In this document: in pieces, positions 2,889 through 47,328 of the stretch | Layout: every line of letters begins with the position of its first letter | Numbering within the stretch: the first letter of the stretch is position 1 | IMG/VR virus record: IMGVR_UViG_3300027904_000001 | Source of the DNA: a virus | Reading direction: 5' to 3' (one strand) | Length of the DNA stretch: 64,000 nucleotides | Translations under genes and position numbers: made by a program | Notes under the pieces: model-generated | Seen by the model: only the letters and a program-made list of their open reading frames with translations | Told to the model about the DNA's origin: nothing | Databases searched by the model: none

Positions 2889-3137
2889 TTATTTAATTAA
2901 TATTTCGCCTTCTTCAAATAATTCCTTTTCTGACAAGTTTAAATATTCTGCTATCTTTTCCCTGTAAGCGGGGAACCAAGGATACTTCCCTTTAAAACAT
3001 CTGTTTAAACTTGCTGGGTCTATCCCCGTTTCACGAGCTAATTTTGCTTGAGAAATAGCTCTTTGAAACATTATAATTTTTAATCGTATTATTTTTATTC
3101 CCTCCTTTCTTATACGCCTAATGAAATTGTACTTCAT
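2889..3137 (-). CDS. XRE-family HTH DNA-binding protein (true start may be the internal Met)
   Basis: MFQRAISQAKLARETGIDPASLNRCFKG is an HTH motif. Confidence 0.55.
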   Translation of the reverse strand: MKYNFIRRIRKEGIKIIRLKIIMFQRAISQAKLARETGIDPASLNRCFKGKYPWFPAYREKIAEYLNLSEKELFEEGEILIK

Positions 3138-4559: not shown

Positions 4560-4880
4560 AATAGTTAGTTAAAAACTACGTGAAACGGGGAAGCCTAAGT
4601 ATAAAAGTTTTATATATGGTAATCCTATTCCAAGCCAGAAAGGGATTTCTGGAAGGATCAGAGACTAGGGGAATTAAGCTAGAACAGCCGAACCCCCCAC
4701 GAGTGCGTAGCACCTAAACAAGTAAAGTTGTAGGTGAAGAGATAGTCCGAACCCTAAACAATGCAAGCTTGATTTAACGTTTTATGCATTGTTTCCCTGA
4801 AAAGGTAGGAGACAGAATAAAGAGTCTGTCATATATAATAATGAATATTATATAATAAGAGTTCTTATATTTTTTGCCCT
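4560..4880 (+). ncRNA. Candidate structured non-coding region (multiple stable hairpins, relatively GC-rich)
   Basis: Nested hairpins: atcct..ccagaaa GGGA tttctgg..aggat; aacaatgca...tgcattgtt; gacaga...tctgtc; caccta...taggtg. No ORF. The class could not be assigned. Confidence 0.3.
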
Positions 4881-4887
4881 AGTCTTC

Positions 4888-5322
4888 ATGTGGGGCCGTG
4901 GTGAAAAGCGTCATCACAGTAATGTAGGCGAATATTTAGCTCCTGTATTAGCCGCAACAGCGATGAATCAGCCGAAGCCATGCTATGACTATGGATATGA
5001 TCGTAATGGTTATGAACATTGGGACATAGTTCGAGATGAAAATCGGGAATTTGGGAATATCAAGAAAGAAATTGCCGAAACCGGCTGGACTATTTCAAGA
5101 GAAGCCGACAGGAATTTTTATACTACGAGTAACCTAATCAATGAATCAAAGTATGAAAACGCCCGTCAAGCCGATCTCAACACATTTAATATTATACGGG
5201 AAATTAATCAAGGAACGCAAGCCGTATTAACAAAATTAGCAAACGATACCGAGCAAAGGTTGAGAGATGAACTATATGAGGCGCGGCTTAACTTGCCAAG
5301 ACCGCCTTATGGATATTGCTAA
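4888..5322 (+). CDS. Hypothetical protein with Tyr/Gly-rich motifs (start uncertain)
   Basis: ORF in the GC-richer island. Motifs YDYGYDRNGYEHW and PRPPYGYC. Confidence 0.35.
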   Translation: MWGRGEKRHHSNVGEYLAPVLAATAMNQPKPCYDYGYDRNGYEHWDIVRDENREFGNIKKEIAETGWTISREADRNFYTTSNLINESKYENARQADLNTFNIIREINQGTQAVLTKLANDTEQRLRDELYEARLNLPRPPYGYC

Positions 5323-5491
5323 TTTTAAAGGTTTTAAAATTCAATAAAAACAATGAACTATCAATCGTTAACTAAAGATTGAAATCATTATTTGTAAATC
5401 TGATGTCCGCCCGATGTTAGTCGGCTGGCGCCAAAACATATATGAGTCGGGTGATGTTGGGTTGATAAATAAATGATAGGAGAAATGTAAT

Positions 5492-6328
5492 ATGAATCAT
5501 TGTAAAAGAAATTTTCATGCACCTGTTTACAGGGGTAATGAAAGGGTTCAACGCATGGTTAGCTGTGGTTTTAATGCGGGTTTTGCACATTTTGAAAGGA
5601 AACCATGTTGCGAAAATAAAGCATTAAGAAGTGGTGCAGTGCATGAATATCCAATAGTGTGTAGACCTCCAGAAAGAATAGACATTGAAAGGGTAGTTTC
5701 TATTCCGGGGATCGATGACTCCTTATTTTTGGTTGGGGATGTAGCAAATTACAAAATGAACAAAAATTTCCAAGTGGAAATTTCTGGTGATGCAATTAAT
5801 GTTGTATCAGGTAATTTCGCGACATACTTACTCCTAAAAAATGGGTCAATGCATACATTAGGTTTTTCAACAGCCAATATTGAAAAATGCTTGCGTAGGA
5901 ATAGCCATATGTTTACGAAAGATGGAATCCGTAACCATGATTTAGAATTGCTTTACCCAGATTTAGCACCGCAGGATGAGAATGTGGAATTGGAAGAAAA
6001 AGAATGTGCTCCAAGGAGATATGCAAGAGAAACCATTATAAGTAATTCAACACTGGCAGATAACTCTACTACAATCCGCATTGATATTTATGAATGTGAT
6101 CAATTGGTAGATACTGAAATATGGTTCTTAATTAAAATGGTTTGTGAAAACGTAAATACTGTTAGAGGAATGAATGTAGCGGCTTGGGATGATTCACCAC
6201 GTACATGTGGAGAAGTTGTCTTTTTGTTAGGTCGCAGTACAAATAATGGTCTTTTTGTCCTTGCAGGTTATCCTACAAAGAGTTGCGGGTGTCACAATAG
6301 AGGATATAATTACGGTTATAGAGGCTAA
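5492..6328 (+). CDS. Cys-rich hypothetical protein with Gly/Tyr-rich C-terminus
   Basis: 278 aa with RBS aggag. C-terminus CGCHNRGYNYGYRG. Confidence 0.45.
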   Translation: MNHCKRNFHAPVYRGNERVQRMVSCGFNAGFAHFERKPCCENKALRSGAVHEYPIVCRPPERIDIERVVSIPGIDDSLFLVGDVANYKMNKNFQVEISGDAINVVSGNFATYLLLKNGSMHTLGFSTANIEKCLRRNSHMFTKDGIRNHDLELLYPDLAPQDENVELEEKECAPRRYARETIISNSTLADNSTTIRIDIYECDQLVDTEIWFLIKMVCENVNTVRGMNVAAWDDSPRTCGEVVFLLGRSTNNGLFVLAGYPTKSCGCHNRGYNYGYRG

Positions 6329-6336
6329 ATAGTTTT

Positions 6337-6356
6337 GAGGCGGGTTAACCCGCCTC
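6337..6356. terminator. Palindromic hairpin between convergent genes
   Basis: gaggcgggttaacccgcctc. Confidence 0.45.
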
Positions 6357-6359
6357 AAT

Positions 6360-7007
6360 TCATAAAATATCATTGAGTTTGGCAAACTCTCCAAAGTATT
6401 TTGTAGCTAATTCATTATAAACTAAGGCAGCTTTTTCTTCTGAATCAAAAAGAATGGCAATCTTTACTTCCCATTTATTTTGATCTTTGTTCCAATATAC
6501 GCCTTTATACTTGGATGTTCCGATTTTGCGTTTTGTTCGATTGCGAGTATTTTCAGATTGTGTACAAAGTCTTAAATTTTCTTTTCTGCAATCTGTTTTA
6601 TTACTATTTTTATGATCGACTATTGCGCCATCTGGTGCATTAATTATAAATCTATGCAAATATAATATTTTTCCGTCTTTGGTTCGGCAATGGATATAAC
6701 CGTGAGATGTTGCACTCCAATATGCTAAACTCATTACTTTATCTAAATCATCATTGTCAATTAGAAATTCTGTTTTGTGTTTAGTATTTGGATTTAATAC
6801 TTTAGAATATGCATCAAAATGTATAACAATCATTGGGCATTTTACATAACCACGTTCAAAATCTTTATATCTTGTTTTTCTAGTTTCGCCGTTTTCAAAT
6901 TCAATGATAATATCATTGGTAGTTTTGTAATGAATAATAGTTGCATTAAGTCCATTTTTCATTGTACGAACTTCACCAGTTCTGTCATTTAATTGATTTT
7001 TGTGCAT
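6360..7007 (-). CDS. HNH homing endonuclease with AP2 DNA-binding domain
   Basis: VDHKNSNKTDCRKENLR is an HNH_3 motif. SKYKGVYWNKDQNKWEVKI...KYFGEFAKLN is an AP2 domain. Confidence 0.7.
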   Translation of the reverse strand: MHKNQLNDRTGEVRTMKNGLNATIIHYKTTNDIIIEFENGETRKTRYKDFERGYVKCPMIVIHFDAYSKVLNPNTKHKTEFLIDNDDLDKVMSLAYWSATSHGYIHCRTKDGKILYLHRFIINAPDGAIVDHKNSNKTDCRKENLRLCTQSENTRNRTKRKIGTSKYKGVYWNKDQNKWEVKIAILFDSEEKAALVYNELATKYFGEFAKLNDIL

Positions 7008-7136
7008 AAAAAATAACCTCCAACCTCATATATTTATCGGGAAAGGACGATGAGGTAAAGTCGCCCACAGGTTTGCAACCCTGCCCGATTTGTATATATA
7101 TTATAACATAAAGATACCAAAAAATCAACCAAAGGA

Positions 7137-7325
7137 TTGATATCAATGCCGGATTACAAATGTGCCGAAAGTGCAAAAAGATATATAAAAGCTTACTTCA
7201 CCGACTTTTGGGGTAAAGTATCCGTCGTTTACAATAATTGCAATATCGATGAAAGACCAGAAATAAAAAAAGAGATTCTACTTTTGGCAGAACGAATTAA
7301 TTATTTAATAAACAAATCTCAATAA
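7137..7325 (+). CDS. Hypothetical protein
   Basis: Small ORF. Confidence 0.35.
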   Translation: MISMPDYKCAESAKRYIKAYFTDFWGKVSVVYNNCNIDERPEIKKEILLLAERINYLINKSQ

Positions 7326-7355
7326 ATTAACATAAATACGAAAGGATGATAAATA

Positions 7356-7682
7356 TTGGAAAGGATACACAAATACCGCGAAGACCTGCATGATCATATA
7401 TTAGAAAGGGCTGGAGAAAAAGGGTTTCAGCCGCATCCGCAGGCGAGAAAAGAAATAGATGATCTCATCGATCACCACGAGCGTGTATGCGACTATATCG
7501 GCGATGCTGAGCATCATGCAAGACGCGGACGCAGTGGCGGTCGTCAAGAAAGATATGACATGTATGATTATGATGGCGGATATGGCGGCGGACGCCACGA
7601 AGTATATGCCATGGAAGACGATTATATGGAAAGAGAAAGATACGCAAAAAGAGGAGTAGGAAGACCGAGAAAAAGACGTTAA
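7356..7682 (+). CDS. His/Tyr/Gly-rich protein with C-terminal AT-hook (GRPRKRR); TTG start
   Basis: RBS aaagga 9 nt before TTG. Motifs RSGGRQERYDMYDYDGGYGGGRH and VGRPRKRR. Confidence 0.45.
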   Translation: MERIHKYREDLHDHILERAGEKGFQPHPQARKEIDDLIDHHERVCDYIGDAEHHARRGRSGGRQERYDMYDYDGGYGGGRHEVYAMEDDYMERERYAKRGVGRPRKRR

Positions 7683-7696
7683 GCGGGGTGACTTAA

Positions 7697-8161
7697 GTGA
7701 AAGCAATATATGAAAAAATATTAAAAGACGCGGAGCAAGATAGAGACGATTGGGCAAAAGAAGGCGTTGATCTTGACGATATACCCGAATTTGTCAGACT
7801 TGTAGAAAGCTGCGAAACACTTAAGAAATACGTTGTTACAATAAAAGAGCAACCCGCAACCCGCGAAAAACGCGGAGGCAGTGATATAATCGATGCAAGT
7901 TACATATTTAGCACCGTTCAGGACGAAATTGAAGGTGCTGAAAAATATTATAATTTGTATGTTAGAATAAAGCAGGAAGGTCAAGATAAAGAACGCATCG
8001 GTAGCCTGCAGGCGGAAACGCTCAAGCAGATGGCTAAAGATGAGGTGCGGCACGCTGATACTTGGCTGAAATTAGCACAAGAACAAGGTCTTGATCAATC
8101 TAAGGTTGCACAGCTTAAACAACGATTATCCGCTGTAATGTCTAAATTAAGAACTATTTAA
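7697..8161 (+). CDS. Hypothetical protein
   Basis: 154 aa with RBS ggggtg, followed by a terminator. Confidence 0.5.
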   Translation: MKAIYEKILKDAEQDRDDWAKEGVDLDDIPEFVRLVESCETLKKYVVTIKEQPATREKRGGSDIIDASYIFSTVQDEIEGAEKYYNLYVRIKQEGQDKERIGSLQAETLKQMAKDEVRHADTWLKLAQEQGLDQSKVAQLKQRLSAVMSKLRTI

Positions 8162-8192
8162 AGCCTCTATACGGGGCTTTTTGATTTTTTTT
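8162..8192 (+). terminator. Rho-independent terminator
   Basis: agcctctatacggggct followed by ttttgatttttttt. Confidence 0.55.
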
Positions 8193-8212
8193 GAAACGGC
8201 AGGTGAATTAGA

Positions 8213-8417
8213 AGTGCCTGAAAAGAATAACAGTAAATGCAAGTACCCTAATAATTGCATTTATCACGGGTCTGGTTGCTATCATTTCAGTAATCAGCCG
8301 GATCACGATAAAGAAAAGGTACCGATTGAAATCAAAGATTTGACCTTTTCGGCAAGTGTTATAAGCCTGCCGGAAGGTTCAGAACCAACAATAAAAATAA
8401 TCAAAACTGGAAAATAG
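8213..8417 (+). CDS. Hypothetical Cys/His-containing small protein (GTG start)
   Basis: aggtga RBS then GTG. Sequence VPEKNNSKCKYPNNCIYHGSGCYH. Confidence 0.3.
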
Positions 8418-8432
8418 GAAGGAGGAAAAGGA

Positions 8433-8672
8433 ATGGCTACAAATATACATTTTGAATTCGGTATACCGATGGCAGCAAAGAAAGGTGCTGACGGAGATGA
8501 CGGAAAATCTGCTTATGAATTGGCAGTAGAAGCTGGGTTCCACGGAACTTTAGAACATTGGTTGGCAAGTTTGAAAGGTGCCGATGCAGAACCGTTAGAT
8601 TTGACAGCAACAGCACATTTAACAATGCTCGATTCCGAAGAAGAACCATCAATCAAAGTAACGGTAACATAA
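8433..8672 (+). CDS. Small protein carrying one phage tail-fibre repeat
   Basis: GADGDDGKSAYELAVEAGFHGTLEHWLASLKG matches the phage tail-fibre repeat consensus (GKSAYEIAV.NGF.GTEEEWL.SLKG). Confidence 0.45.
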   Translation: MATNIHFEFGIPMAAKKGADGDDGKSAYELAVEAGFHGTLEHWLASLKGADAEPLDLTATAHLTMLDSEEEPSIKVTVT

Positions 8673-8680
8673 TAAAAAAA

Positions 8681-8708
8681 AGAGCCTTTATTGGCTCTCT
8701 TTTTTTTA
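8681..8708. terminator. Bidirectional rho-independent terminator
   Basis: agagcctttattggctct, flanked by an A-run and a T-run. Confidence 0.55.
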
Positions 8709-8731
8709 GCAGATAATATATTATTATTTGA

Positions 8732-8923
8732 TTAATCCAGATACTCTCCAGCAAATATCATTCTAACGATTTCTGATTCGATTTCATCACTAATTCGATC
8801 ATATGCTATTTTAAGCATATAATCAGCTGTTGAATTGCTTTTTAATTCATTACGTTTATCATGGAGAGCATTAGATGCCTCTCTCAAGATATCAATTTGT
8901 TTGATTTGTTTTAAATTATTCAT
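8732..8923 (-). CDS. Hypothetical protein
   Basis: Small ORF. Confidence 0.35.
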   Translation of the reverse strand: MNNLKQIKQIDILREASNALHDKRNELKSNSTADYMLKIAYDRISDEIESEIVRMIFAGEYLD

Positions 8924-8942
8924 TTCACTTCCCCATCTTCTT

Positions 8943-9167
8943 TTATTTTTTTACTTTCTGGGATGCACCGCATACAATACATTCCCAAACTCTATATTCC
9001 ATAGTGTTTTCAATATTAGCGTGATTAAAATTTTTTTTGCATTTTTTACAGTAGAACGGTCTAGCTGTCCACAGCCCTCTACTATGAGCATTGGCTTCCC
9101 GATTATATTCCCTTGTTTCCATTTCAAACTTCCTCCTTATAAATTTTTTTATTATCTTCCCCACCAA
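8943..9167 (-). CDS. Small zinc-ribbon protein (paralog of 1148..1372)
   Basis: FYCKKCKK...EYRVWECIVCG. Confidence 0.45.
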   Translation of the reverse strand: MVGKIIKKFIRRKFEMETREYNREANAHSRGLWTARPFYCKKCKKNFNHANIENTMEYRVWECIVCGASQKVKK

Positions 9168-10012
9168 TTAATTGAGAAGTTTTCTTTTTGTACTTTTTCT
9201 TTCATTGCTGCCCATTCTTCTTCAGTTGTTTCTGGAGCATAACTTTGGGCATATGCAATTTGTTCTCCGACTTTGGCGATTTTTTCTTCAGTTTCTTTTA
9301 TGTCTTGCTTCCATTTTCCGATTTTATCGGAAGTAGGGCGTTTTTCAATCCATGTTTTTAATCTTTCTATTTGCCTTTCGTATTCTAGGATATTGCTATC
9401 CAGGTATAACAGCCTTTTGGCGATAGCCCGTGTAACAACATCCGGTTTCATCCACCGACACGGAATCAAATCGACGAAGGTGCCGTTTTGTAGTTCCAAC
9501 GCACCTACGTCCCCACTATCTTTGTGGGTTACATAGATGCGGCCGATTGTTCTTGCCCATGGTTGGCGGCCTTGAAAATTCTCTAACCATGTTACAACAT
9601 TAGCAATGTCAGCCTTAATCTGAGTTAGGTCGATATCTTCTCGTTGGCCTACTGAAGCGGTTAAAAAATCTCGCTGTCCAATACGGATCCACTCGGGTAC
9701 GTCTTCGTCTCCTTCTTCATCAAAGGTTTCAAAGAAATTATCGTATCTTTTACGGAATTCTCTATTTATTTCCTCTTGGAAATTACTTAAAGAGATTTCA
9801 TTATGATGTTCGCCGGCATAACAAAATCTAATGTTATATCTCCGGCCAGTATAACCCTCTTGGATTGCATCGTAAAATGCTATTCTTTCCTCGATTACTT
9901 TTATGATTAAATCTAAATTATTAAACATTTTTATGCCTCCTGCGATATTATAATGCTTAATACAATTAGTACATCGACAGATAGTGTCACGAACATTTGT
10001 CATACTAACCAT
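9152..10012 (-). CDS. Hypothetical protein (286 aa)
   Basis: Long ORF; no motif recognised with confidence. Confidence 0.5.
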   Translation of the reverse strand: MVSMTNVRDTICRCTNCIKHYNIAGGIKMFNNLDLIIKVIEERIAFYDAIQEGYTGRRYNIRFCYAGEHHNEISLSNFQEEINREFRKRYDNFFETFDEEGDEDVPEWIRIGQRDFLTASVGQREDIDLTQIKADIANVVTWLENFQGRQPWARTIGRIYVTHKDSGDVGALELQNGTFVDLIPCRWMKPDVVTRAIAKRLLYLDSNILEYERQIERLKTWIEKRPTSDKIGKWKQDIKETEEKIAKVGEQIAYAQSYAPETTEEEWAAMKEKVQKENFSINWWGR

Positions 10013-10205
10013 ATCAATTGTATCCTTTTGCCCTTACGTAACGGGATACCAAAACGTCACGCCCTGTAAGTTTATACTCTATTCACATCTATTAGGCATT
10101 AGAGTTATTGATCATAATCTATGGGGAACTAGATTATGCGTTACAGGTATATGAATTCATCGTGAATTATTATTCATAAACCACTTGCCCACAACTAATT
10201 ATGTG

Positions 10206-10496
10206 TTAAAACAATACCCTCAAATTTCTTGGTGACCTATAGCAGTCTGGCGCATCGCCAAAAATAAGGGTATAACGTTCAACAACTATTATGTCACCGT
10301 TGTCAAACTCTGCAAAAAACACTGTATTGTCAGGCATAGTATCATTATTGTCTAAAAATCGAGCATCATTAGAGTGCTTATCTGCTAATTCTTCTGCTAC
10401 TTTGATTGCTAGAGAAGATTTTTCATAAAATCCCTCAATGGCATCTCGACCATCAATAAATGTTGTTAATAAAAATACGTTCATGTTATCCTCCAT
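10206..10496 (-). CDS. Hypothetical protein
   Basis: ORF with RBS. Confidence 0.4.
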   Translation of the reverse strand: MEDNMNVFLLTTFIDGRDAIEGFYEKSSLAIKVAEELADKHSNDARFLDNNDTMPDNTVFFAEFDNGDIIVVERYTLIFGDAPDCYRSPRNLRVLF

Positions 10497-10535
10497 TATA
10501 TAATTGCCGATAGCCGATCGGCGGCGGGTAATATT

Positions 10536-10949
10536 CTACCACTCTATTAATTGATCTTTAAATTCTTCTACCCATGTTCCAGCAAAATACTGGCTTAGGC
10601 AATCATATTCTATGCGTTCCCATTCTCCGTCATTATGCTTATCGAAATAAGCTTGAAGGATATCAGTTACGTCTACAAATTCTACTTTGCTAAAATCGAA
10701 AATTCCATTTATTTCTTCTTCAGATAGCATCCAGTTATCGTCTGAAGAAATTATGTCTTCATAAATTTCGCGCAAGGCTGCATATCTATGGCAACCTGTT
10801 ACTAAGTTATCGTCTGTTACTAATATTGGCATTCCATTCCAGCCGTTGTTTAGAAGACTTTCTTTTATTTCACTGAGGTAATCTTGATCTACCTCGTGAA
10901 TAGGTGTGTAATATATTGATGAATTAAAACTTTCTGTGTAATATTTCAT
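10536..10949 (-). CDS. ParB-like nuclease (ParB N-terminal domain) protein
   Basis: GWNGMPILVTDDNLVTGCHRYAA matches the ParBc DG[HC]HR motif. Confidence 0.5.
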   Translation of the reverse strand: MKYYTESFNSSIYYTPIHEVDQDYLSEIKESLLNNGWNGMPILVTDDNLVTGCHRYAALREIYEDIISSDDNWMLSEEEINGIFDFSKVEFVDVTDILQAYFDKHNDGEWERIEYDCLSQYFAGTWVEEFKDQLIEW

Positions 10950-11200
10950 CTCTTATTCCTCCGTTTAGTTTATGTGTTAATAACAGTATATACCTTATTC
11001 CGTATACTGTCAAGTGTTTTTTTGAAATTTTTTAATTTTTTTTTGAGATTTAAAAAACGCTTTAAAATCGATTTTAAGGTACTTATTTTATTAGGCAATG
11101 TTTTATACCAGAATGTTTTTTATGTTTAATCTCGGGGCGATTTAGGACATTGTAGGGGCATATAAAATAAACTGTTGATTTGTTAAAAGATACAAAAAAA

Positions 11201-11231
11201 AGACCGTCATCCCTTAAACGGTCTTTTTTTG
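11201..11231. terminator. Bidirectional rho-independent terminator
   Basis: aaaaaaaa agaccgt catcccttaa acggtct ttttttt. Confidence 0.55.
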
Positions 11232-11315
11232 AGAGGTTGGTTTGCTTTTTGAATATAGGTAATTACTAAAGATAATACAGCAAAATATTGTTGCTGTCAA
11301 ATAATTTATTAGATT

Positions 11316-11933
11316 TTAATTTTGCCATCTATCCAAGCCGCGTTTTTCTTTTTTGATTTCAAAATAATTAGTTTCTTTTTTAACCGCGGTTACATCTTTA
11401 CCCAAATCGAAATCCGGATTCTGTATTGCCCAAATCAGCCAGCGGGGGACATTCTTGATGTCACTGACTTGTTTCTGTAATTGTGGCATGATATTTTTTA
11501 ATCTTTCTATGCTAAAATCACGTGTATTAGCAATGTTTCTTAACTGTATCTCCGTCAACGGTTCCAACGGCACAATACAATCCATTATGATAGCCTCAAT
11601 TTCTTGCAACAAAGAAGAAGAGACAACAACGGACGAAGAAAAATCTGTAAAAGAATTTAAAGAATCTGAAGTATTGTAGTTAGTTGTTGTTTTATTTATA
11701 TTTGTTTTTGTTTGTTGGGCATCTAAATTGATGTGACTGGACACATCTAAATTAATGTTTCTGGTCACATCATTTTTGATGCGAGAATGTACGTTCGTCA
11801 CATCGAAACTGATTTCTCCAGTTTTGTATTTTAACCATTCCATATAATTTTGATTAATACTTAATATTTTACCTTTATTATTAGTATGCTCTTCAATCAC
11901 AATAACAATATTATGATCTATAAGTTTTTTCAA
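11316..11933 (-). CDS. Replication-initiator-like protein with internal iterons and conserved C-terminal tail KKEKRGLDRWQN
   Basis: C-terminus VPRWLIWAIQNPDFDL...KKEKRGLDRWQN is shared with 31668..32501 and 54947..55807. Direct repeats lie inside the gene at about 11718..11805. Confidence 0.5.
   Translation of the reverse strand: MKKLIDHNIVIVIEEHTNNKGKILSINQNYMEWLKYKTGEISFDVTNVHSRIKNDVTRNINLDVSSHINLDAQQTKTNINKTTTNYNTSDSLNSFTDFSSSVVVSSSLLQEIEAIIMDCIVPLEPLTEIQLRNIANTRDFSIERLKNIMPQLQKQVSDIKNVPRWLIWAIQNPDFDLGKDVTAVKKETNYFEIKKEKRGLDRWQN
11718..11805. repeat. Iteron-like direct repeats (CATCTAAATTRATGT and GTCACATC-type) inside gene 11316..11933
   Basis: gcatctaaattgatgtgactggacacatctaaattaatgtttctggtcacatca...cgtcacatcg. 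Confidence 0.4.
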
Positions 11934-12112
11934 AGAACGTTGTACTTGTTGATACGTTGAACATCCTATAAAATTGTCAATAAATGATATACTTAATTGA
12001 TCCTCCAGTCTGGAAAATCCAAATGTATATCTTACAATACAGTCAAATATTGCACGTTCCGTGGCATTCGCTTAACTACCTTTTGGGAAAATATAAAAGG
12101 GAGGAATGATTT

Positions 12113-12322
12113 ATAGATTTAACATTTGGTGAGCAATTAAAAGTGCACCTAAATAGAAAAAATATAACGATTAGTGAATTGTCAAAAATAACAGGCACAT
12201 CAAGGCAGAATCTGACAAATAAATTTACTCGAAATGATTTTCGAGAAAATGAAATGCTAAAGATTGCTAAGGCCGTTAATTTAAAATTGACAATATCACT
12301 GGATAATAAAAGCGATGGTTAA
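12113..12322 (+). CDS. XRE-family HTH regulator; no canonical start codon (ATA after GGGAGG RBS) or a pseudogene
   Basis: Frame FIDLTFGEQLKVHLNRKNITISELSKITGTSRQNLTNKF is a typical XRE N-terminus. The upstream in-frame stop is at 12107. The only ATG (12106) is out of frame. Confidence 0.4.
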   Translation: MDLTFGEQLKVHLNRKNITISELSKITGTSRQNLTNKFTRNDFRENEMLKIAKAVNLKLTISLDNKSDG

Positions 12323-12338
12323 ATAATCATCGCCTTTT
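12312..12338 (+). terminator. Rho-independent terminator
   Basis: gcgatggttaaataatcatcgc followed by cttttt. Confidence 0.45.
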
Positions 12339-12348
12339 TAAAATATTT

Positions 12349-12900
12349 TTATTTTATTTTAATTCTGATATCATAGTGATTAAATTCACTATCTATCGTA
12401 TTTAATAATAGACTAAAGATTTCATAAATTGCATTTGCAACATCTTCTTCCGCAATTCTATAATACTCTTCAACCATAAGCTCTTCTCTCATAGATTCCA
12501 TTATAGATATATATAGTTCGCTAGATTCGTATAATGATATTTCCGCATCATTTATTACAAACCAGCCTTTATCCGGCGTAAAAACTTCTATATCTGTAAT
12601 TTCAACTGAGTTAATTTCAGGCTTGTTTATTTGAATCACTATTATTTTCTTTGTGTCGTCAACCACAATGTCATTTTCCACAATTGTTGATAAATCTGTA
12701 GAATACTTTCCTACTCCGTAAAAATTCATTTTTTGTATCCGTCTAAAGAATTTATCATTTAGGCTATCAATGATACCACCTTCCTTAGTATTTTCAGTTC
12801 TAAATATATCAAACGGTTTTGCACCGTCATTAAACTCGGTTTCCTGTTTCAATATAATTTCCGTTACTATTAAATCTTTCTTTTGCTTAATCTCTGTCAC
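12349..12900 (-). CDS. Hypothetical protein; ORF stays open to about 13050 and encodes a signal-peptide-like N-terminus with no canonical start
   Basis: Track ORF starts MTEIKQKKD. The in-frame upstream IYKALFYIFIGAFVALYLFGNLGKSTPKE is signal-anchor-like, preceded by aggag and ATT. Confidence 0.45.
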   Translation of the reverse strand: MTEIKQKKDLIVTEIILKQETEFNDGAKPFDIFRTENTKEGGIIDSLNDKFFRRIQKMNFYGVGKYSTDLSTIVENDIVVDDTKKIIVIQINKPEINSVEITDIEVFTPDKGWFVINDAEISLYESSELYISIMESMREELMVEEYYRIAEEDVANAIYEIFSLLLNTIDSEFNHYDIRIKIK

Positions 12901-13075
12901 TAATATTTCTTTGATATTTATTTTTTCTTTAATCTCCTCAACTATTTCAGGGCTATTTATGATATATTGTTCTTTTGGCGTAGATTTGCCGAGATTGCCA
13001 AATAAATATAATGCAACAAATGCCCCGATAAAAATGTAAAATAATGCTTTATAAATCTATATCATCTCCTCTTTC

Positions 13076-13243
13076 TATAAATTTAACTTTATCTCGGTTA
13101 TCAGCGAATCAATGATTTTCCGATAATCAAGAATTGTGATTCCTAAAAACCTATTGATTAATTCTAAAAATAATATGCCTACGGCTAGTGTTATAATAGC
13201 AAACAATAACCAGCTAAATAATTTACCTATCATTTAATCTCTC
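13076..13243 (-). CDS. Small membrane protein (55 aa)
   Basis: MIGKLFSWLLFAIITLAVGILFLELINRF... Below the ORF-track size cutoff. Confidence 0.3.
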
Positions 13244-13246
13244 CTC

Positions 13247-14374
13247 TTATTTTGTTAAAACTGTATATAATACATCCGCTAGCGGAACCATGGCATTGGT
13301 TGCCTCGCCTATTGAATTCTTGTCAGAGCCAACTTCGACCAATATTGACTTAGCCCGCTGAAACGTAGAATACCTATGCTTATGCAAGTATATAGGCCGC
13401 ATCAAACCTGGATATTTCTCGTTAGCTTCTAAAAATAGTTGCAACGAAAACGCAGTATTTTCAAAAACATAGGGATTGTACAATCCACCTTTTGACAACC
13501 CGTTAAAAAACATAATTCTTGCAGTTGGCCTGTCGTCGAACATTGTCATAAATTTGCTCGGAGTGCCGTCACGGTGCATATCGATCACAATTTCTATGGA
13601 CGGATACATAGCGAGAGCTTCTCTTATTACTTCTTCTGAATATTCATAACTGCTGTAAAACTCGCCTGGCGGCACATATACATTTTCTATATGCAAAACA
13701 GATACTTTATAGTTTGTTTTCAAAATATTTGTAAGCATCTTTCCTACCCCTACGATAGAATCTGCTAATTCACCTGGTCTGCTATTTGAAAATGTTTCAT
13801 GACTGTGAGTATGAATGATCAATATCTTATAATCATCCCCGCTTAAATCTGTTTTGCAGTTATATGATAACATTTTATCTATAGGAAAATCTGATATACT
13901 AACGGAAACTTCTGCATCTACTATATACACATATCTTTTTAGTAAATCTAAGTTGTCTTTTATCCCTAGAATACCTAAGCGTGTAACCCCCTCAGCCGCT
14001 GGAGCTATTGGTATTGATGGCAGATTTTCTTGTTCTGACCTTGTTGTGATTTCGCCCTCTGTCCCATCCCAATTTGTTATCTTTGTAACCGTAACGTTAG
14101 ATGAAATATCCCGAGCTGATGCCAAAATCTCATCATTTATTCCGTACAGTGGATCATCTGAATTAATCGGATTCTTGTCACCTTCATTCTCCTTATATGA
14201 CAATTCGAGATTTATTTTACTTGCATTCCCAACAATAGATAATATCTCATCTGGAATAATTTCTGTAAATTCTTGTTTGATTTGCTCAACAACTGCATCT
14301 TTTTCTGGTGTTGGATTGAAATTTACTATTATATAGATGATGATAATTATAATTGCAACATCACCTATCTTCAT
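13247..14374 (-). CDS. SpoIIP-family protein (stage II sporulation protein P-like cell-wall hydrolase), membrane anchored
   Basis: N-terminal TM segment. KILIIHTHSHETFSNSRPGE resembles the SpoIIP (I/L)YHTHS.E(S/A)(Y/F) signature. Confidence 0.6.
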   Translation of the reverse strand: MKIGDVAIIIIIIYIIVNFNPTPEKDAVVEQIKQEFTEIIPDEILSIVGNASKINLELSYKENEGDKNPINSDDPLYGINDEILASARDISSNVTVTKITNWDGTEGEITTRSEQENLPSIPIAPAAEGVTRLGILGIKDNLDLLKRYVYIVDAEVSVSISDFPIDKMLSYNCKTDLSGDDYKILIIHTHSHETFSNSRPGELADSIVGVGKMLTNILKTNYKVSVLHIENVYVPPGEFYSSYEYSEEVIREALAMYPSIEIVIDMHRDGTPSKFMTMFDDRPTARIMFFNGLSKGGLYNPYVFENTAFSLQLFLEANEKYPGLMRPIYLHKHRYSTFQRAKSILVEVGSDKNSIGEATNAMVPLADVLYTVLTK

Positions 14375-14610
14375 TCAGTTAACTCAACCCCCTTCATAAT
14401 ATTAATTATTATCACATACACAAAAATCCCTATAAAAATCATCATCCTTCCTTTCATACATCTTTCTTCATTGATTAAATAATGGTTACTTTTATAGTTT
14501 ATCCACGGAAGTGCTTTTATATACCAATATTTTTTCGCTATGGTAAAAATTATTAATATCCCAATTCTTATGCACCAGAATATTAAATTTTTATCCAAGT
14601 TATACATCAC
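14371..14610 (-). CDS. Membrane protein
   Basis: Two hydrophobic segments. Confidence 0.4.
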   Translation of the reverse strand: MMYNLDKNLIFWCIRIGILIIFTIAKKYWYIKALPWINYKSNHYLINEERCMKGRMMIFIGIFVYVIIINIMKGVELTE

Positions 14611-14855
14611 TCCTTATTTTTTGCTTTATCAATTACATTTTGGATTGATGCCGGCATAGTAAAATTTGCCTGAACCATACCATCATCATTTTTTATAAAA
14701 AATGTTTTATAGCCTATTATTATGGCTATAAGTAATACCGCTGTTTTTAGCACGAAGCTTATATTCCTTGTTATCCTCTGAATAGTATCATCGTTGAAAA
14801 CAAATATTCCGAATAGCAGAAACGCGCCTATAAAATAAATCATGTTTTCTTTCAA
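14607..14855 (-). CDS. Membrane protein
   Basis: Two hydrophobic segments, with RBS ggagg. Confidence 0.4.
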   Translation of the reverse strand: MKENMIYFIGAFLLFGIFVFNDDTIQRITRNISFVLKTAVLLIAIIIGYKTFFIKNDDGMVQANFTMPASIQNVIDKAKNKE

Positions 14856-14860
14856 AAATT

Positions 14861-15055
14861 TTATTCCTCCTTTTTTTTTATAGTTTCAGTAGAATCAATA
14901 TATTTTTCCCATTCCTCAGCTTTTATTAAATATCGTCTTCCAATCTTAAAAGCTGGTACTTTCTCTTGATTTATCAGCCTCCTTATAATTCTTTCGTTTA
15001 TTTCTGGATGCAATGTCGCCAACTGCTTCACAGAATATAAATTCTGGTTTATTAT
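14861..15055 (-). CDS. Excisionase/MerR-like HTH_17 DNA-binding protein; non-canonical ATA start after AAAGGAG (or GTG at 15031)
   Basis: LYSVKQLATLHPEINERIIRRLINQEKVPAFKIGRRYLIKAEEW matches the HTH_17/Xis pattern. There is no ATG in frame after the TGA at 15059..15061. Confidence 0.4.
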   Translation of the reverse strand: MINQNLYSVKQLATLHPEINERIIRRLINQEKVPAFKIGRRYLIKAEEWEKYIDSTETIKKKEE

Positions 15056-15462
15056 ATATCACTCCTTTATTTGCGATTACATATCATAGCGTATCATAGT
15101 GTATTGTAATTGTCAATAATGATTTGTTGCAAATAATAACATTAAAAATACTATATTGTTCATTAAAGCAAATATAAAACATATCCTTTATATATTATTT
15201 TGCTGGGAAAACTTATATTTTTAGATATATTTCTATTCCCAGCGAACCTATCAGCGAACAATTCGGCAAGTTATTCAAAATAAACATAATAAATTGCATA
15301 CTATTACAAATATTATATTTTCATCTATTTATTTTATTTGTCATATTATAATATATAATATTATATGAAACTATATAAAAATATATTGACATTTATAAAA
15401 TTCTGAGATACCATGGAATAAATTATAAAAATAAATATAAAATATTAAAAACGGAGGTAAAA

Positions 15463-16512
15463 ATGCCAGAAAATAGTAATAGTATCAATTTTTATGCAGG
15501 AATCGATTTGGGAGCTGGTCAACTAAATAGCGTGACGATTCCCGATGCAGATATTAAAAATGTAAAACAATTTAAACCGGGGGCAATCGTAACATTTCCG
15601 TCATTGATTCAAGACGGATGTGATAAGTTTGATCAAAGACAAAAAATCAAAGTAGAGTATGATGGCGGGATTTATAGTATAGGAATTGGTAATGATATTA
15701 TACATGAAGCTAAGTATATTACTAAGCAATATGAGACAATATTGTTAACATCTATAGCAATGTCAGCTATTCCGTCCAATGTTATTGCAAGTATAGCAAT
15801 CGGAATGCCTATTTCGCATTTCAGGAATGAAAAGCTAGTAGGTGGCGTTATTCAGCATTTACAAAGTTTAAGAAATAAAAAAATAGCTATTACCCCAAAT
15901 GGTAACAGTGAAATTGCGAAAACAATAACTATACAAAAGGCAAATGTATTGCCTGAAAATTCAGTTATTGTAATCAATCCAAACGCATATCAGGTAGGGA
16001 AATATTTGTTCATTGACATTGGAAATCGCACTATAGATTTCACTTTGTATAAAATAACAGAAAAGACAATCAACAAAGAAAATCGGAAAGTGGCAGAAAG
16101 AAGAGGGGCATATACATTAAATAAGGGTATTTTGACACTTAAGAAAAAAATAGTTGAAGAACTTGAAGGTGATTATAACGTAAAATTAAGTTTTGACGAT
16201 TATGACGATCTATTTACAGCCGCCATGGAAGGCTCAGAATTCTACTTAAATTTAATTGGCAATGTTCCTACGACAAAATACAAAAAAACTATAGACAATT
16301 ATGTAAGTAATAACATTTTTAGTGAACTAACCCGACTTTACAGCGATGAAATTGCTGGATCAAGATTAGTATTCCATGGATATGGTTCTGTATTGTTAGA
16401 ATCAATCCTAAAAAGCGATATATATAGAAGTGTATATATGTTGGGATTGCATCCTGATAAGCAATTTGCAAACGCAAAGGCGAATTTTATAGTAGCAACG
16501 CAATGCAAATAA
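15463..16512 (+). CDS. ParM/StbA-family actin-like ATPase (plasmid segregation)
   Basis: GIDLGAG ... IDIGNRTIDF are actin-fold phosphate motifs. RBS ggaggt. Confidence 0.6.
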   Translation: MPENSNSINFYAGIDLGAGQLNSVTIPDADIKNVKQFKPGAIVTFPSLIQDGCDKFDQRQKIKVEYDGGIYSIGIGNDIIHEAKYITKQYETILLTSIAMSAIPSNVIASIAIGMPISHFRNEKLVGGVIQHLQSLRNKKIAITPNGNSEIAKTITIQKANVLPENSVIVINPNAYQVGKYLFIDIGNRTIDFTLYKITEKTINKENRKVAERRGAYTLNKGILTLKKKIVEELEGDYNVKLSFDDYDDLFTAAMEGSEFYLNLIGNVPTTKYKKTIDNYVSNNIFSELTRLYSDEIAGSRLVFHGYGSVLLESILKSDIYRSVYMLGLHPDKQFANAKANFIVATQCK

Positions 16513-16524
16513 AAGGGGGATAAC

Positions 16525-16899
16525 TTGTCAATGTCTGATAAGGAAAAAGATAATCTAATTAATGAACAGAAAAAAAAAGCACGATTGAATTTGCAAGAAG
16601 ATGATCCCAGGCCTATCACATTAACATTTGATAGGCTAAAAGGGAATGACATGTTAATCTGGCGATGGCTTATAAATGAAGTGAAGAAAAAAGGTCGACA
16701 ACAAGCAATAAAAGATGTTCTATTGCCATATGCTATAGAATATAAAAAAATGTTAGAAATAAAAGAAAATGAATATCCGTTTGATTCAGTACTTATTCAA
16801 CAAGAAATCCATAAAAAGCCGAATCAAGATAAAGCCGAAGACAATCTCAGGCAAGAAGTAATTGATGAAATATTAATGAATGATATTTTCGAGAAATAA
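16525..16899 (+). CDS. Putative partition adaptor (ParR-like) downstream of the ParM-like gene
   Basis: Position and size only. Confidence 0.3.
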   Translation: MSMSDKEKDNLINEQKKKARLNLQEDDPRPITLTFDRLKGNDMLIWRWLINEVKKKGRQQAIKDVLLPYAIEYKKMLEIKENEYPFDSVLIQQEIHKKPNQDKAEDNLRQEVIDEILMNDIFEK

Positions 16900-16921
16900 A
16901 AAATAAAAGGAGAATGAAATA

Positions 16922-17431
16922 ATGATCAATATAACAGAAATGAGAAAAGAAAGAAGAACCATAACATCAATTATGCAAAATATTGAAAGGAAAGAAAAAA
17001 TATTACAGACAATAAAAATAATCACAGCTTCTATAACGGCATTCATCCTATTAGCTTGCTGCTTTCCTCATGATGTAGGAATTTTAGGATTAATGACAGC
17101 TAATATATTTACATCACTATTTGGCAATAGCATGAGATGGATGTATATAGCAGGGCTTGTTTTGATTGAAGCATTATATGTTTTACATGATGCTCAGATC
17201 AAAAAATTACAAAACAAAATAATTAGTTTGTTTGCGTGGCTTATATCTTTATCCATAACATTTAGTGGAATATTCGATACCGGTTTGGTTGGAAGCTTGA
17301 TTAACCATTTTATAGTGACAGTTATTGGTATAATCCCGCTAATTGTTGTAAGTATTATAACAACAATGTATTTTTCTATAGAATGGTTTGGCATAAAGCT
17401 GGAAAATATACAGAAAGTTTTGTTAAGTTAA
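16922..17431 (+). CDS. Membrane protein, paralog of the N-terminal membrane domain of the FtsK-like gene
   Basis: MRWMYIAGLVLIEALYVL...ISLFAWLISLSITFSGIFDTGLVGSLINHFIV resembles MKWIYLAGAGVLELNFLL...INSVAWLTSISTTLGGHYDMGVFGAVLNYV in the FtsK-like gene. Confidence 0.5.
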   Translation: MINITEMRKERRTITSIMQNIERKEKILQTIKIITASITAFILLACCFPHDVGILGLMTANIFTSLFGNSMRWMYIAGLVLIEALYVLHDAQIKKLQNKIISLFAWLISLSITFSGIFDTGLVGSLINHFIVTVIGIIPLIVVSIITTMYFSIEWFGIKLENIQKVLLS

Positions 17432-17615
17432 AAATAATAAATAAAAAGAGAGGAGCATTATTATTTTAGCAAAATCAAAAAGGAGGACACAGAGTAAAGC
17501 AATAATATGTATAACAACGACAGCATTTGTTGGATGGTCATGTCTTGCACCCGACTATGCCGGGGCGTGGGGCAGAGTAGTAGAAACATCCATAACTGAT
17601 TTTTTTGGCTATCAT

Positions 17616-30172: not shown

Positions 30173-30335
30173 AGATGGTTAAAATATCACGCACTTCAAA
30201 TTATGATTGAAGTCAGTTATATGTATTCCTAATCAAGCATACCGTTATGTTTAATTAACGGTATGCCACATGAAATATTAAAGGAAGAGTTGATAAAAAT
30301 AGAAAAAATATTAAAAATTTATGAAAAATATATAG

Positions 30336-31286
30336 AAGAAGCAAAAGAGCCTTGAATGGTATAAATACTGGAATAACCAAGTTTATGTATCGTTTAGCGG
30401 GGGCAAGGATTCAACTGTATTAACAGAATTAACAGCACGTATTTGTTTTGCTAATTGTTTACCATTAAGATTATGCTTTGTTGATACTGGTCTGGAATAT
30501 CCAGAAATTCGGAAATTTGTACCCGAATTTAAAGATTATTTGCATAACAAATATAATATTGAAATTATTATTGATATTATTAAACCTGCCATGCGATTTG
30601 ATGAAGCCATTAAAAAATATGGCTATCCCGTAATTAGTAAAGACGTTTCAAAAACAATTGAATATGCTCAGAAAGGTGCTATTTGGGCAATAAATGCTTT
30701 AGATGGACTTGAAAAAGATGGAACTCTGTACGGGAATAAGAGTTTTAAAAAACGTTACAAAAAATATAAGTATTTATTGAATGCTCCGTTCAAGATATCT
30801 GAAAAATGTTGCAAATATATAAAAGAACAACCAATCAAAGTCTATGAAAAGCAAAATGATTTAAAACCAATCATTGGAACAATAGCGGATGAAAGCAAGA
30901 GAAGACTTGATGGTTGGCTTAAAGTAGGGTGCAATGCCTTTGATATTGAAAGACCAAGATCAACCCCACTTGCTTTTTGGACAGAACAAGACATTTTACA
31001 ATATGTTTATTTGACTAAATTGCCGATATCCAAAATATACGGTGATGTAGTGCCAATTTCTGATCAACTAAATTTCTTCGATGAAATCGGTAAATTGCAA
31101 ACAACTGGTGAATCAAGAACAGGATGTATGTTCTGTATGTTCGGATGTCATAGGGATAATCCGAACAAATTTCAAAGGATGAAACACGCACATCCTAAAT
31201 TATATGATTACTGCATTAGAGATGTAGAAGAGCAGGGTTTAGGATTAGGCAAAGTCTTAGATTATATCGGCGTTAAATATGATTAA
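30336..31286 (+). CDS. PAPS-reductase-family protein; N-terminus unresolved (no canonical start; track ORF starts at internal Met 30540)
   Basis: In-frame upstream VYVSFSGGKDSTVLTEL is a PP-loop. C-terminal Cys cluster CMFCMFGCH. The reading frame opens after the TAG at 30333. Confidence 0.5.
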   Translation, partial: KKQKSLEWYKYWNNQVYVSFSGGKDSTVLTELTARICFANCLPLRLCFVDTGLEYPEIRKFVPEFKDYLHNKYNIEIIIDIIKPAMRFDEAIKKYGYPVISKDVSKTIEYAQKGAIWAINALDGLEKDGTLYGNKSFKKRYKKYKYLLNAPFKISEKCCKYIKEQPIKVYEKQNDLKPIIGTIADESKRRLDGWLKVGCNAFDIERPRSTPLAFWTEQDILQYVYLTKLPISKIYGDVVPISDQLNFFDEIGKLQTTGESRTGCMFCMFGCHRDNPNKFQRMKHAHPKLYDYCIRDVEEQGLGLGKVLDYIGVKYD

Positions 31287-31667: not shown

Positions 31668-32501
31668 ATGGCAAGACCGATTAAGCAAGGTTTGGATTAT
31701 TTCCCTTTAGATGTTGATTTTTTGCAAGATATTAAGATAAGAAAAATATTAAGAGCATGTGGTTCAGGTTCAATTACTGTACTAATCTGCCTGCTCGGTA
31801 ATATTTACAGAGATTGTGGGTATTACATGCAGTGGGATGAAGATATTTGTTTTTTAGTGGCTGACACGGTTGGTACTACTGAGCGAGCAGTAACAGAAAT
31901 TGTAAAAAAATCCTTGCAGGTTAAATTTTTTGATCAAAATATCTTCGACAAATATACAATATTGACATCAACTGGCATACAAAAAAGATATTTTGAGGCG
32001 GTTGAGCGAAGAAAGGAAGTCCAAATTAATAAGGATTTAATTTTAATAAATCTTACTAAGTATAAATTTTCAAATTTGATTAATGTTAACAATAACTTGA
32101 TAAATGATGACATTAACTTGATAAATGATGACACAAATGAACAAAGTAAAGGAGAGGAAAGTAAAGAAAACAATAGCATTAATAATGTAAATACCGAAGT
32201 TAATGTTTACAAATATATTCAAACGCATTTTGGCACATTGCCTAGCGGAATAGCCGTAGAAGAAATTAATTCCTTTATAAGTGACGGTATGCAACCAGAA
32301 CTTATATGCAGAGCAATAGATGAAAGTGTTAATAATGGTGTTCGAAAATGGGTATATGCTAAAAAAATCTTAAATACTTGGTTAAACAGTAATTGGTTGA
32401 CTCTTAATGATTATTTATTATTTGGAGACAAGAAAAACAATACAATTCCAATTAATCAACCTAAAAAAGAAAAGAAAGGGTTAGATCAATGGCAGAATTA
32501 A
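31668..32501 (+). CDS. Replisome organizer (N-terminal wHTH plus C-terminal DnaD-like domain) with internal iterons and KKEKKGLDQWQN tail
   Basis: MARPIKQGLDYFPLDVDFL...; DnaD-like ...RKWVYAKKILNTWLNSN. The 21-bp direct repeat aacttgataaatgatgaca occurs twice, at 32094..32133. Confidence 0.65.
   Translation: MARPIKQGLDYFPLDVDFLQDIKIRKILRACGSGSITVLICLLGNIYRDCGYYMQWDEDICFLVADTVGTTERAVTEIVKKSLQVKFFDQNIFDKYTILTSTGIQKRYFEAVERRKEVQINKDLILINLTKYKFSNLINVNNNLINDDINLINDDTNEQSKGEESKENNSINNVNTEVNVYKYIQTHFGTLPSGIAVEEINSFISDGMQPELICRAIDESVNNGVRKWVYAKKILNTWLNSNWLTLNDYLLFGDKKNNTIPINQPKKEKKGLDQWQN
32090..32136. repeat. Iterons inside the replisome-organizer gene
   Basis: taacttgataaatgatgacattaacttgataaatgatgacac. 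Confidence 0.5.
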
Positions 32502-46491: not shown

Positions 46492-46968
46492 GTGGAATTT
46501 GAAGAAATATTGCTGGAATTAAAAAAAGGAAAGCGTGCAAGGCGCAAACAATGGCATAAAAACAATATGCCAACAGCAAATATTTTCATAGACAATGATA
46601 TTATAAGATACGAATGTTTAGATGCGGGTTATGAGATTTGTAAAATGTGGAGTCCAGTTGATATTAGTTCGGATGATTGGGAAATTATTGAAGTTAAATC
46701 GCCATCATTGGAATTACAAAATATATCAAAGGCGATGGCGGAAAGCATATCAGAGAATATTAGAAATACTGGTTTATTAGATATATCAAATAAAGACAAT
46801 AATGATGCTTTTTCGCGAGAAGAAATTAAAAATATACTTGAAAAAGAATTAGAAGAAATTAACAGTCAGTATAAAATAAGCAATAAATATTTAAAAGGAT
46901 ATTTGCTTGGTAATTTAGATGGCAGAAAAAATACAATATTAAATATTTTAACATTATTAATTAAATAA
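46492..46968 (+). CDS. DUF2829-domain protein (Tad2-like anti-defence sponge family) with C-terminal extension
   Basis: MEFEEILLELKKGKRARRKQW...ISSDDWEIIE matches the DUF2829 consensus (FEEAL.ALK.GKKVRR..W ... EDWEIV). Confidence 0.55.
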   Translation: MEFEEILLELKKGKRARRKQWHKNNMPTANIFIDNDIIRYECLDAGYEICKMWSPVDISSDDWEIIEVKSPSLELQNISKAMAESISENIRNTGLLDISNKDNNDAFSREEIKNILEKELEEINSQYKISNKYLKGYLLGNLDGRKNTILNILTLLIK

Positions 46969-47290: not shown

Positions 47291-47328
47291 TTTACTTTTT
47301 GAGGAAATGTAAATAGGCAGGTGCCTTT

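Follow-up and report, generated by a model that had tools for sequence, protein, structure and literature searches.

Putative AUA and AUU start codons behind strong Shine-Dalgarno sequences in five genes of a Firmicutes phage-like element

Genes and putative start sites

The DNA under study is a 64,000-nt stretch with 32.5% GC from IMG/VR record IMGVR_UViG_3300027904_000001, referred to as the window, which contains about 85 genes of an approximately 89 kb element. The element is a Firmicutes phage or phage-plasmid; it is contained in an NCBI metagenome-assembled genome annotated as 'Firmicutes bacterium', to which the proteins MCL2310904.1 and MCL2310938.1 belong, and its host is uncultured. 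A preliminary description had reported four genes in the window whose conserved N-termini lack a canonical start codon and are preceded by a Shine-Dalgarno (SD) sequence followed by ATA or ATT. All four sites, belonging to an XRE-type regulator gene, a DUF4230 gene, a Xis-like gene and an FtsK-like gene, were found to be present as described, apart from one coordinate in the DUF4230 gene. Scanning of the whole window added the portal gene, a fifth clear case outside the coordinates of that description, and a second HTH_26 regulator gene as an ambiguous sixth. SD duplex energies were computed with the Firmicutes-type 16S tail GAUCACCUCCUUUCU, and 76 canonical starts in the window (65 ATG, 6 GTG and 5 TTG) served as the reference set. 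The genes and sites are as follows.

12113..12322, plus strand: XRE/Cro-type HTH_26 regulator; proposed start ATA 12113-12115
12096..12111, plus strand: extended SD of the XRE gene, AAAGGGAGGAATGATT; core GGGAGG 12099-12104
12349..13056, minus strand: DUF4230 membrane protein, 235 aa (Pfam DUF4230); proposed start ATT 13056-13054
13061..13072, minus strand: extended SD of the DUF4230 gene, AGAGGAGATGAT; -12.9 kcal/mol
14861..15055, minus strand: Xis/excisionase-type HTH_17 protein; proposed start ATA 15055 or ATA 15052
15058..15068, minus strand: extended SD of the Xis-like gene, AAAGGAGTGAT; -12.2 kcal/mol
17457..19451, plus strand: FtsK/SpoIIIE-like membrane ATPase, 664 aa (Pfam FtsK_SpoIIIE, FtsK_alpha); proposed start among ATT ATT ATT 17457-17465
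17448..17455, plus strand: SD of the FtsK-like gene, GAGAGGAG; -12.7 kcal/mol
59598..61211, plus strand: portal protein, 537 aa; proposed start ATT 59598
59586..59592, plus strand: SD of the portal gene, AGGTGAT; -12.5 kcal/mol, 5-nt spacer to ATT
2889..3111, minus strand: second HTH_26 regulator, ambiguous sixth case; SD AAGAAAGGAGGG at 3111-3100, 7-nt spacer, ATA ATA (3092, 3089)

In the XRE gene, the GGGAGG core is separated from ATA 12113 by the 8-nt spacer AATGATTT. The frame opens with the in-frame stop TGA 12107-12109, followed by TTT ATA GAT TTA ACA TTT GGT GAG, and its first canonical codon is GTG 12143. The duplex of the SD with the 16S 3' tail was calculated at -14.0 kcal/mol, which places it in the top 9% of the 76 canonical sites. 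The Pfam HTH_26 match (6.9e-6) begins two residues upstream of GTG 12143, and the TFGEQLK helix-1 motif of the protein also lies upstream of that codon. An ATG at 12106, 1 nt from the SD core, is out of the XRE frame and belongs to the extended SD. At the end of the gene, a terminator is located at 12312-12333.

In the DUF4230 gene, AGGAG 13070-13066 is followed by the 9-nt spacer ATGATATAG and ATT 13056-13054; the preliminary description had given this arrangement correctly but had placed the ATT at about 13051. The frame opens directly after TAG 13059-13057, and its first canonical codon, GTG 12900, is codon 52. The abutting ATG-ATA-TAG before the gene (ATG 13065) has zero spacing to the core and runs into the stop. 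Upstream on the same strand, within 13057-13233, a small transmembrane open reading frame (ORF) at 13075-13233 lies in the DUF4230 frame, parted from it only by TAG-KEEMI-TAG; in one gene call of the Logan pipeline (P0130, 294 aa), both TAGs are read as Gln and the two ORFs are fused. The closest homolog of the DUF4230 protein, P0131 (247 aa, E=3.5e-31), was obtained in an exhaustive HMMER search and aligns from query residue 1; in its gene, an in-frame GTG behind an AGGTGAT SD lies before the annotated ATG. A word-based search with the protein returned only itself. The six aligned family members that cover most of the protein are 220-247 aa long and carry an N-terminal transmembrane helix. 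This length range fits the 235-aa product from ATT and neither the 183-aa product from GTG nor the 294-aa fusion. What had been described as a signal peptide is really an N-terminal transmembrane anchor, as across the family.

The Xis-like gene is the first of the minus-strand operon that ends with the DUF4230 gene. Its AAAGGAG (15068-15062) is followed by the 6-nt spacer TGATAT and by two ATA codons (15055-15053 and 15052-15050). The frame reads TAT ATA ATA AAC after the stop TGA 15061-15059, with GTG 15031 as its first canonical codon; GTG 15062, inside the SD, is out of frame. Position 1 of the Pfam HTH_17 profile falls three residues upstream of GTG 15031, which has no SD (-1.4), and PHROG excisionase families likewise match the protein.

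In the FtsK-like gene, GAGAGGAG is followed by a single C and then by ATT ATT ATT, with the third ATT 7 nt from the SD. After the stop TAA 17442-17444, the frame reads AAA GAG AGG AGC ATT ATT ATT, and no canonical codon appears before ATG 17616, which is codon 57 counted from the opening of the frame and lacks an SD (-4.0). The N-terminal membrane domain of the protein is paralogous to the neighbouring ORF 16922-17431 (E=3e-26), with which it aligns from residue 4, so that the paralogy extends 50 residues upstream of the first ATG. The search for orthologous loci returned only the FtsK-like protein itself plus relatives at ≤25% identity, and an exact-pattern search of genome contigs for its start with N at the third codon position, aimed at allelic variants, found none. 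Inside the leader, at 17476-17485 (plus strand), there is a second strong SD-like sequence, AAAAAGGAGG (-12.2); the in-frame ATA codons nearest to it are 15-18 nt downstream, too distant for normal initiation.

The portal frame reads GCA ATT (59598) AAA GAT after TGA TAA, and its first ATG (59658) is codon 21 and lacks an SD (-2.3). The alignment with PHROG_533 (portal) begins at residue 7 of the ATT-initiated protein. Portal relatives (≤48% identity) have ATG, GTG or TTG at the position homologous to ATT 59598. A GGTGA-type SD precedes the start in both relatives inspected in detail, and in the closest relative the number of residues from the start codon to the conserved Gly13 is equal. Since the starts of the relatives align exactly there, ATT 59598 occupies the start-codon position of an essential gene. 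The preliminary description had regarded ATG in related genomes as a sign of sequence error; canonical codons are indeed found in the portal relatives, but the ATT is not thereby a sequence error. With third codon positions set to N, the exact pattern of the portal start had no match in JGI metagenome contigs.

The SD of the second HTH_26 gene (-17.4 kcal/mol) is the strongest in the window, and the HTH_26 domain begins five residues upstream of ATG 3071. The gene was counted as ambiguous because an in-frame ATG exists at 3137; this codon has no SD and lies inside a promoter-like site, TTGACA-17-TACAAT.

Shine-Dalgarno strength, coding content and reproducibility

Each of the four reported genes opens just after a stop and has no in-frame ATG, GTG or TTG for 8-53 codons after the ATA or ATT. 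In all five genes, portal included, such codons are absent from the stretch that leads from the preceding stop to the conserved N-terminus. As had been stated in the preliminary description, the four genes are preceded by stops of mixed type: TGA (XRE), TAG (DUF4230), TGA (Xis-like) and TAA (FtsK-like).

Comparison of the duplex energies revealed a median of -10.85 kcal/mol for the canonical starts and values from -12.2 to -17.4 kcal/mol for the ATA/ATT sites (one-sided Mann-Whitney p=0.002). Arranged by start codon, the SDs become stronger from ATG (-10.4) over TTG (-11.4) and GTG (-12.35) to the near-cognate codons (about -12.8), as expected if a strong SD compensates a weak start codon. The first canonical codons downstream gave -7.6 (XRE), -2.3 (DUF4230), -1.4 (Xis-like) and -4.0 (FtsK-like), values weaker than those of 93-100% of real starts; four downstream canonical codons (-1.4 to -4.0) scored below all 76 canonical sites. 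ATG 12106, ATG 13065 and GTG 15062 are not considered starts because only 0-1 nt separate them from the core and their letters fit the ...GGAGGUGAU extension of the SD. The use of these codons for a mini-ORF or for frameshifting was discarded on the same grounds, namely the match to the UGAU extension and the short distance.

Codon usage was expressed as a log-likelihood ratio (LLR) per codon, on a scale on which the confident genes of the window have 0.30 ± 0.10 and off-frames -0.76. The longer extensions upstream of the first canonical codon (10-53 codons: XRE, DUF4230, FtsK-like and portal) scored 0.21-0.42 per codon and are coding by this measure, with 0.40 for the 10 codons of XRE, 0.31 for the 52 codons of DUF4230 and 0.21 for FtsK-like. 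The eight-codon extension of the Xis-like gene scored -0.15 and is too short to inform. An open run of 52-53 codons would arise by chance with P ~0.003. ATA and ATT together make up 8.1% of in-frame codons, and the chance of finding either in two in-frame positions at functional spacing is ~0.15 per gene and ~9e-5 for five genes.

At 12901-13056 (minus strand) and 17457-17615 (plus strand), 52 and 53 codons after the ATT are free of ATG, GTG and TTG, for which P is ~0.065 each at 5.1% usage. It is a matter of speculation whether this absence after the two longest weak starts reflects selection tied to such starts or chance.

Under a strict criterion (SD ≤ -12, a near-cognate codon in the first 12 codons, and the first canonical codon ≥5 codons further on and lacking an SD), 4/110 ORFs were retrieved in the window versus 1/575 in related phage loci totalling 486 kb (Fisher p=0.0028). 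A membrane protein gene of an unrelated Firmicutes phage (locus L071, 4465-4992, minus strand; IMGVR_UViG_3300007961_000332) has an SD of -15.5 followed by ATT ATT and no canonical start for 25 codons, and sporadic cases of this arrangement thus occur elsewhere.

Contigs from three assemblies, ENA ERZ27257344 and ENA ERZ27257345 (megahit) and JGI 3300002127, are 100% identical to the window over positions 5170-24374 without gaps. All four reported sites are therefore reproducible, and the systematic indels that the preliminary description had considered as a cause are rejected for these genes. Further contigs match the window exactly at 58200-59371 and 60312-64000.

Judged from these features, at least five intact genes without a canonical start codon probably begin at the near-cognate codons AUA or AUU behind strong or extended SDs. 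By the proposed mechanism, the initiator tRNA would read AUA or AUU as start, and the strong, partly extended SD would pair with the 16S 3' end and set the weak codon, located ~6-9 nt from the GGAG core, in the P site; low translation would be expected from such starts. The genes concerned code for two or three small HTH regulators, two membrane proteins and the portal. Weak AUA/AUU initiation, as proposed in the preliminary description, is the best-supported reading for the four genes and extends to the portal gene, while the deliberate dosage control proposed along with it is an interpretation; we infer from the sequence both the initiation at ATA/ATT and a lowered dosage.

Other irregular genes and alternative explanations

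Two further genes had been listed in the preliminary description as having unresolved starts, and both were found to lie outside the pattern. In the PAPS reductase gene 30263-31286 (plus strand), given there as 30336, ATG 30263 opens ~28-30 codons (LLR 0.58) and the remainder is in the +1 frame, with the junction GCA AAA G|AGC in an A4 run (30341-30350). The copy lacks 14 conserved residues (PLEAKIILTKKRIR-like), which are present in the unshifted homologs of C. difficile and Ruminococcus phages. No SD precedes ATG 30263, which is part of the 3' arm of a hairpin (ATACCGTTA...TAACGGTAT). The gene, with its +1 frameshift after a normal ATG and its 14-aa deletion, is probably the decaying copy of a duplicated pair whose intact member is 21868-23061. 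Programmed +1 frameshifting of the prfB type was considered and dismissed, given the unshifted reading of the inspected homologs, the missing 14 residues and the position of the junction in the A4 run. In the other gene, 41460-41852 (plus strand; given as 41523), the first ATG is preceded by 68 codons that look coding; an SD and a near-cognate codon in a suitable position are both missing. Together with 4801-5322, 47077-47316 and 52503-52718 (plus strand), which show open leaders or odd starts, it was left out for want of a well-placed strong SD plus near-cognate codon or of homology; searches for database homologs of these four ORFs found none. The 52503 ORF reads AGGTGATTATTATAAATG, in which a GTG inside the SD is followed by ATT ATT ATA.

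In the RepO/DnaD-like gene 11316-12071 (minus strand), which abuts the divergently transcribed XRE gene, the N-terminal 28-47 positions of the profile are not represented, 46 codons pass without a start codon, and an SD is absent. The gene appears to be what remains after truncation. The window has an intact counterpart at 31668-34627, a replication initiator accompanied by a DnaB-like helicase.

Besides these, the window codes for packaging and structural proteins (terminase, portal, scaffold and capsid), for replication and modification proteins (replication initiator, DnaB-like helicase, methyltransferases and ParB-like proteins), for a ParM/Alp-like partition ATPase and for the sporulation-like proteins FtsK/SpoIIIE-like, SpoIID and SpoIIP. 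The closest cultured relatives of the portal come from phages infecting Acutalibacter, Bacillus and Clostridium. Near-identical DNA was not found in the phage and plasmid collections searched. The window was also searched for tRNA and Rfam elements, as possible signs of recoding or special initiation, and none were found. A promoter scan gave 48 matches versus 37.7 ± 5.7 expected and is uninformative in this AT-rich DNA. A gene at 43142-45694 (plus strand) codes for an 851-aa protein with the Pfam major-vault-protein shoulder domain (1.2e-22) and a Vault_3 repeat (4e-9), a family unexpected in a Firmicutes phage. The gene at 46492-46965 (plus strand) has a Tad2-like (Thoeris anti-defence 2) domain (Pfam 4e-8), and a second, weak Tad2-like match was obtained for a gene at ~58503-58757 (plus strand) in locus L079.

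Several points weigh against initiation at AUA/AUU. The extensions of XRE and Xis-like are short (10 and 8 codons) and less well supported; in XRE, a weak SD-like GGTGAG (-7.6) accompanies GTG 12143, so that a slightly shortened product is conceivable. Confirmation by several assemblies does not extend to the starts of the portal gene and of the second HTH_26 gene (3092), each of which is known from one assembly. The non-canonical codon is not conserved, in that the portal relatives use canonical starts. Orthologs of the FtsK-like, DUF4230 and SpoIIP-operon genes were sought and none found, SpoIIP having no relative in IMG/VR; as none turned up beyond those of the portal, purifying selection on ATA/ATT cannot be shown. 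Finally, some decay is evident in the element, as at least one of its genes is frameshifted (PAPS reductase) and one is truncated at the N-terminus (RepO-like).

This decay is the starting point of one alternative, in which the genes would be untranslated pseudogenes of a decaying prophage or plasmid whose ATG codons were lost to ATA or ATT under AT-biased mutation. Besides the two decayed genes, the canonical starts of the portal relatives fit it, as do the changes themselves, G-to-A and G-to-T being the expected directions at 32.5% GC. Yet five or six independent hits would all have fallen on 3-nt start codons and left ORFs of 664, 537 and 235 codons free of stops and frameshifts; if 2-20% of inactivating substitutions per gene are estimated to hit the start, the joint probability would be ~1e-6. 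Every change would have led to AUA or AUU, the best non-NUG near-cognates, and none to AAG, ACG, AGG or CUG, and a single ATG cannot yield tandem ATA ATA or ATT ATT ATT. The SDs are above average in strength, the portal is essential, and for each of the two clearly decayed genes the window also contains an intact paralog or analog. Loss of start codons is accordingly regarded as unlikely. Somewhat less likely still is a start at the first downstream canonical codon (GTG 12143, GTG 12900, GTG 15031, ATG 17616 or ATG 59658), with the upstream part untranslated. These codons are the ones chosen by gene callers and NCBI, giving a portal of 517 aa (MCL2310904.1), an FtsK-like protein of 611 or 600 aa, a DUF4230 protein of 183 aa and a Xis-like protein of 56 aa. 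XRE and Xis-like would forfeit just two to three domain residues, and for XRE the site has the SD-like sequence mentioned above. The other four downstream codons have essentially no SD, and the bypassed stretches are coding by codon usage, with the uninformative Xis-like extension excepted. They are also homologous to the FtsK paralog, to the DUF4230 N-termini including the transmembrane anchor and to the portal N-termini, and 52-53 open codons are hardly expected by chance. A downstream canonical start is conceivable for XRE and Xis-like only.

Recoding would imply either read-through of TAG, with the ORF 13075-13233 fused to DUF4230 and PAPS reductase read from ATG 30321, or a +1 frameshift from 12106 or 15062. 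In its favour, both TAGs are translated as Gln in one Logan call, the strings ATG-ATA-TAG-ATT and ATG-AAA-AAT-ATA-TAG each share the frame of their ORF, and ATG 12106 and GTG 15062 lie one base before an ORF codon boundary, so that skipping of one base would be needed. All three stops, however, terminate ordinary genes (TAA 45, TGA 27 and TAG 11 of 83), long ORFs have no in-frame TAG, and tRNA genes are lacking in the window, in agreement with the exclusion of stop-codon recoding in the preliminary description. In the other cases the stop before the gene is TGA or TAA, the SD of DUF4230 sits between both TAGs, and the DUF4230 relatives are shorter than the fusion. The abutting ATG and GTG codons are too near to the core to act as starts and match its UGAU extension, and a slippery motif is absent. 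Recoding is considered very improbable. An artefact of sequencing or assembly, with indels or miscalls at the starts, is barely credible: the starts of the portal gene and of the second HTH_26 gene (3092) do come from one assembly and the PAPS frameshift lies in an A4 run, but the three identical contigs cover all four reported sites, other contigs are identical to the window over 58200-59371 and 60312-64000, and errors would not select start codons behind strong SDs.

Relation to known weak start codons

In E. coli, the AUU start of infC is subject to IF3-discriminated initiation and forms an autoregulatory loop on a translation factor. The pcnB gene of E. coli reportedly also starts at AUU; a paper on pcnB and Hecht et al. 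2017 are both cited in PMC13009471. As in infC and pcnB, a weak AUU would limit expression in the phage genes, with IF3 sensitivity being known in E. coli. In contrast to E. coli infC, nothing in the present data ties the phage genes to IF3; their host is moreover Gram-positive and depends more strongly on the SD.

AUA and AUU starts have been established in S. aureus by Ribo-Ret mapping and reporters for infC (AUA), ccpN (AUA), cvfC1 (AUU) and citZ (AUA), with extended SD motifs predicted for infC, cvfC1 and ccpN (PMC13009471). CcpN is an HTH repressor whose start is also conserved in B. subtilis; the infC, ccpN and cvfC1 starts are conserved across species, and the S. aureus citZ AUA is lineage-specific (PMC13009471), so that conservation of the codon is usual among the best-studied examples but not a requirement. 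Reporters of cvfC1, ccpN and citZ reached ~10% of AUG expression, and up to 30% was seen for ccpN in rich medium (PMC13009471). The phage sites resemble these in having AUA or AUU at a functional distance from a strong SD with an extension in the direction of the start, in having small HTH regulators among the targets, in the host phylum Firmicutes and in the expected attenuation of translation to ~10-30% of AUG. They differ in number, with five or six among ~85 genes of one phage-like element compared to four sites in the whole S. aureus genome, and in that the putative phage set includes a structural gene (portal) and has a weak codon that the portal relatives do not share.

With recoded phages (code 15, TAG=Gln; code 4, TGA=Trp), the element shares the outcome that standard-code callers yield truncated or split genes, and one TAG=Gln fusion was indeed called. 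In contrast to such phages, all three stops terminate ordinary genes, no suppressor tRNA was found in the window and the upstream stops are mixed.

The mechanism is therefore known, and it is the density, 5-6 of ~85 genes with the portal included, that is unusual. The S. aureus genome has ~2,800 genes. Relative to the four documented sites of S. aureus, AUA/AUU starts would be ~40 times as frequent in the phage-like element if the reading is true. If real, these starts cause gene callers and NCBI to truncate or miss the portal, FtsK-like, DUF4230 and HTH proteins, and start-codon models for AT-rich Firmicutes phages should admit ATA and ATT behind strong SDs. A bolder and rather doubtful idea is that AUA/AUU form a regular start class in the phage or its host (at least 6% of genes) and a regulon sensitive to translation status or IF3 level, through which host physiology would be coupled to the regulators of lysogeny and excision, to membrane proteins of partition and sporulation-like type (FtsK-like, DUF4230/SpoIIP operon) and to the portal. 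Weak starts may be an under-appreciated means for temperate elements to keep regulators and membrane proteins at low dosage.

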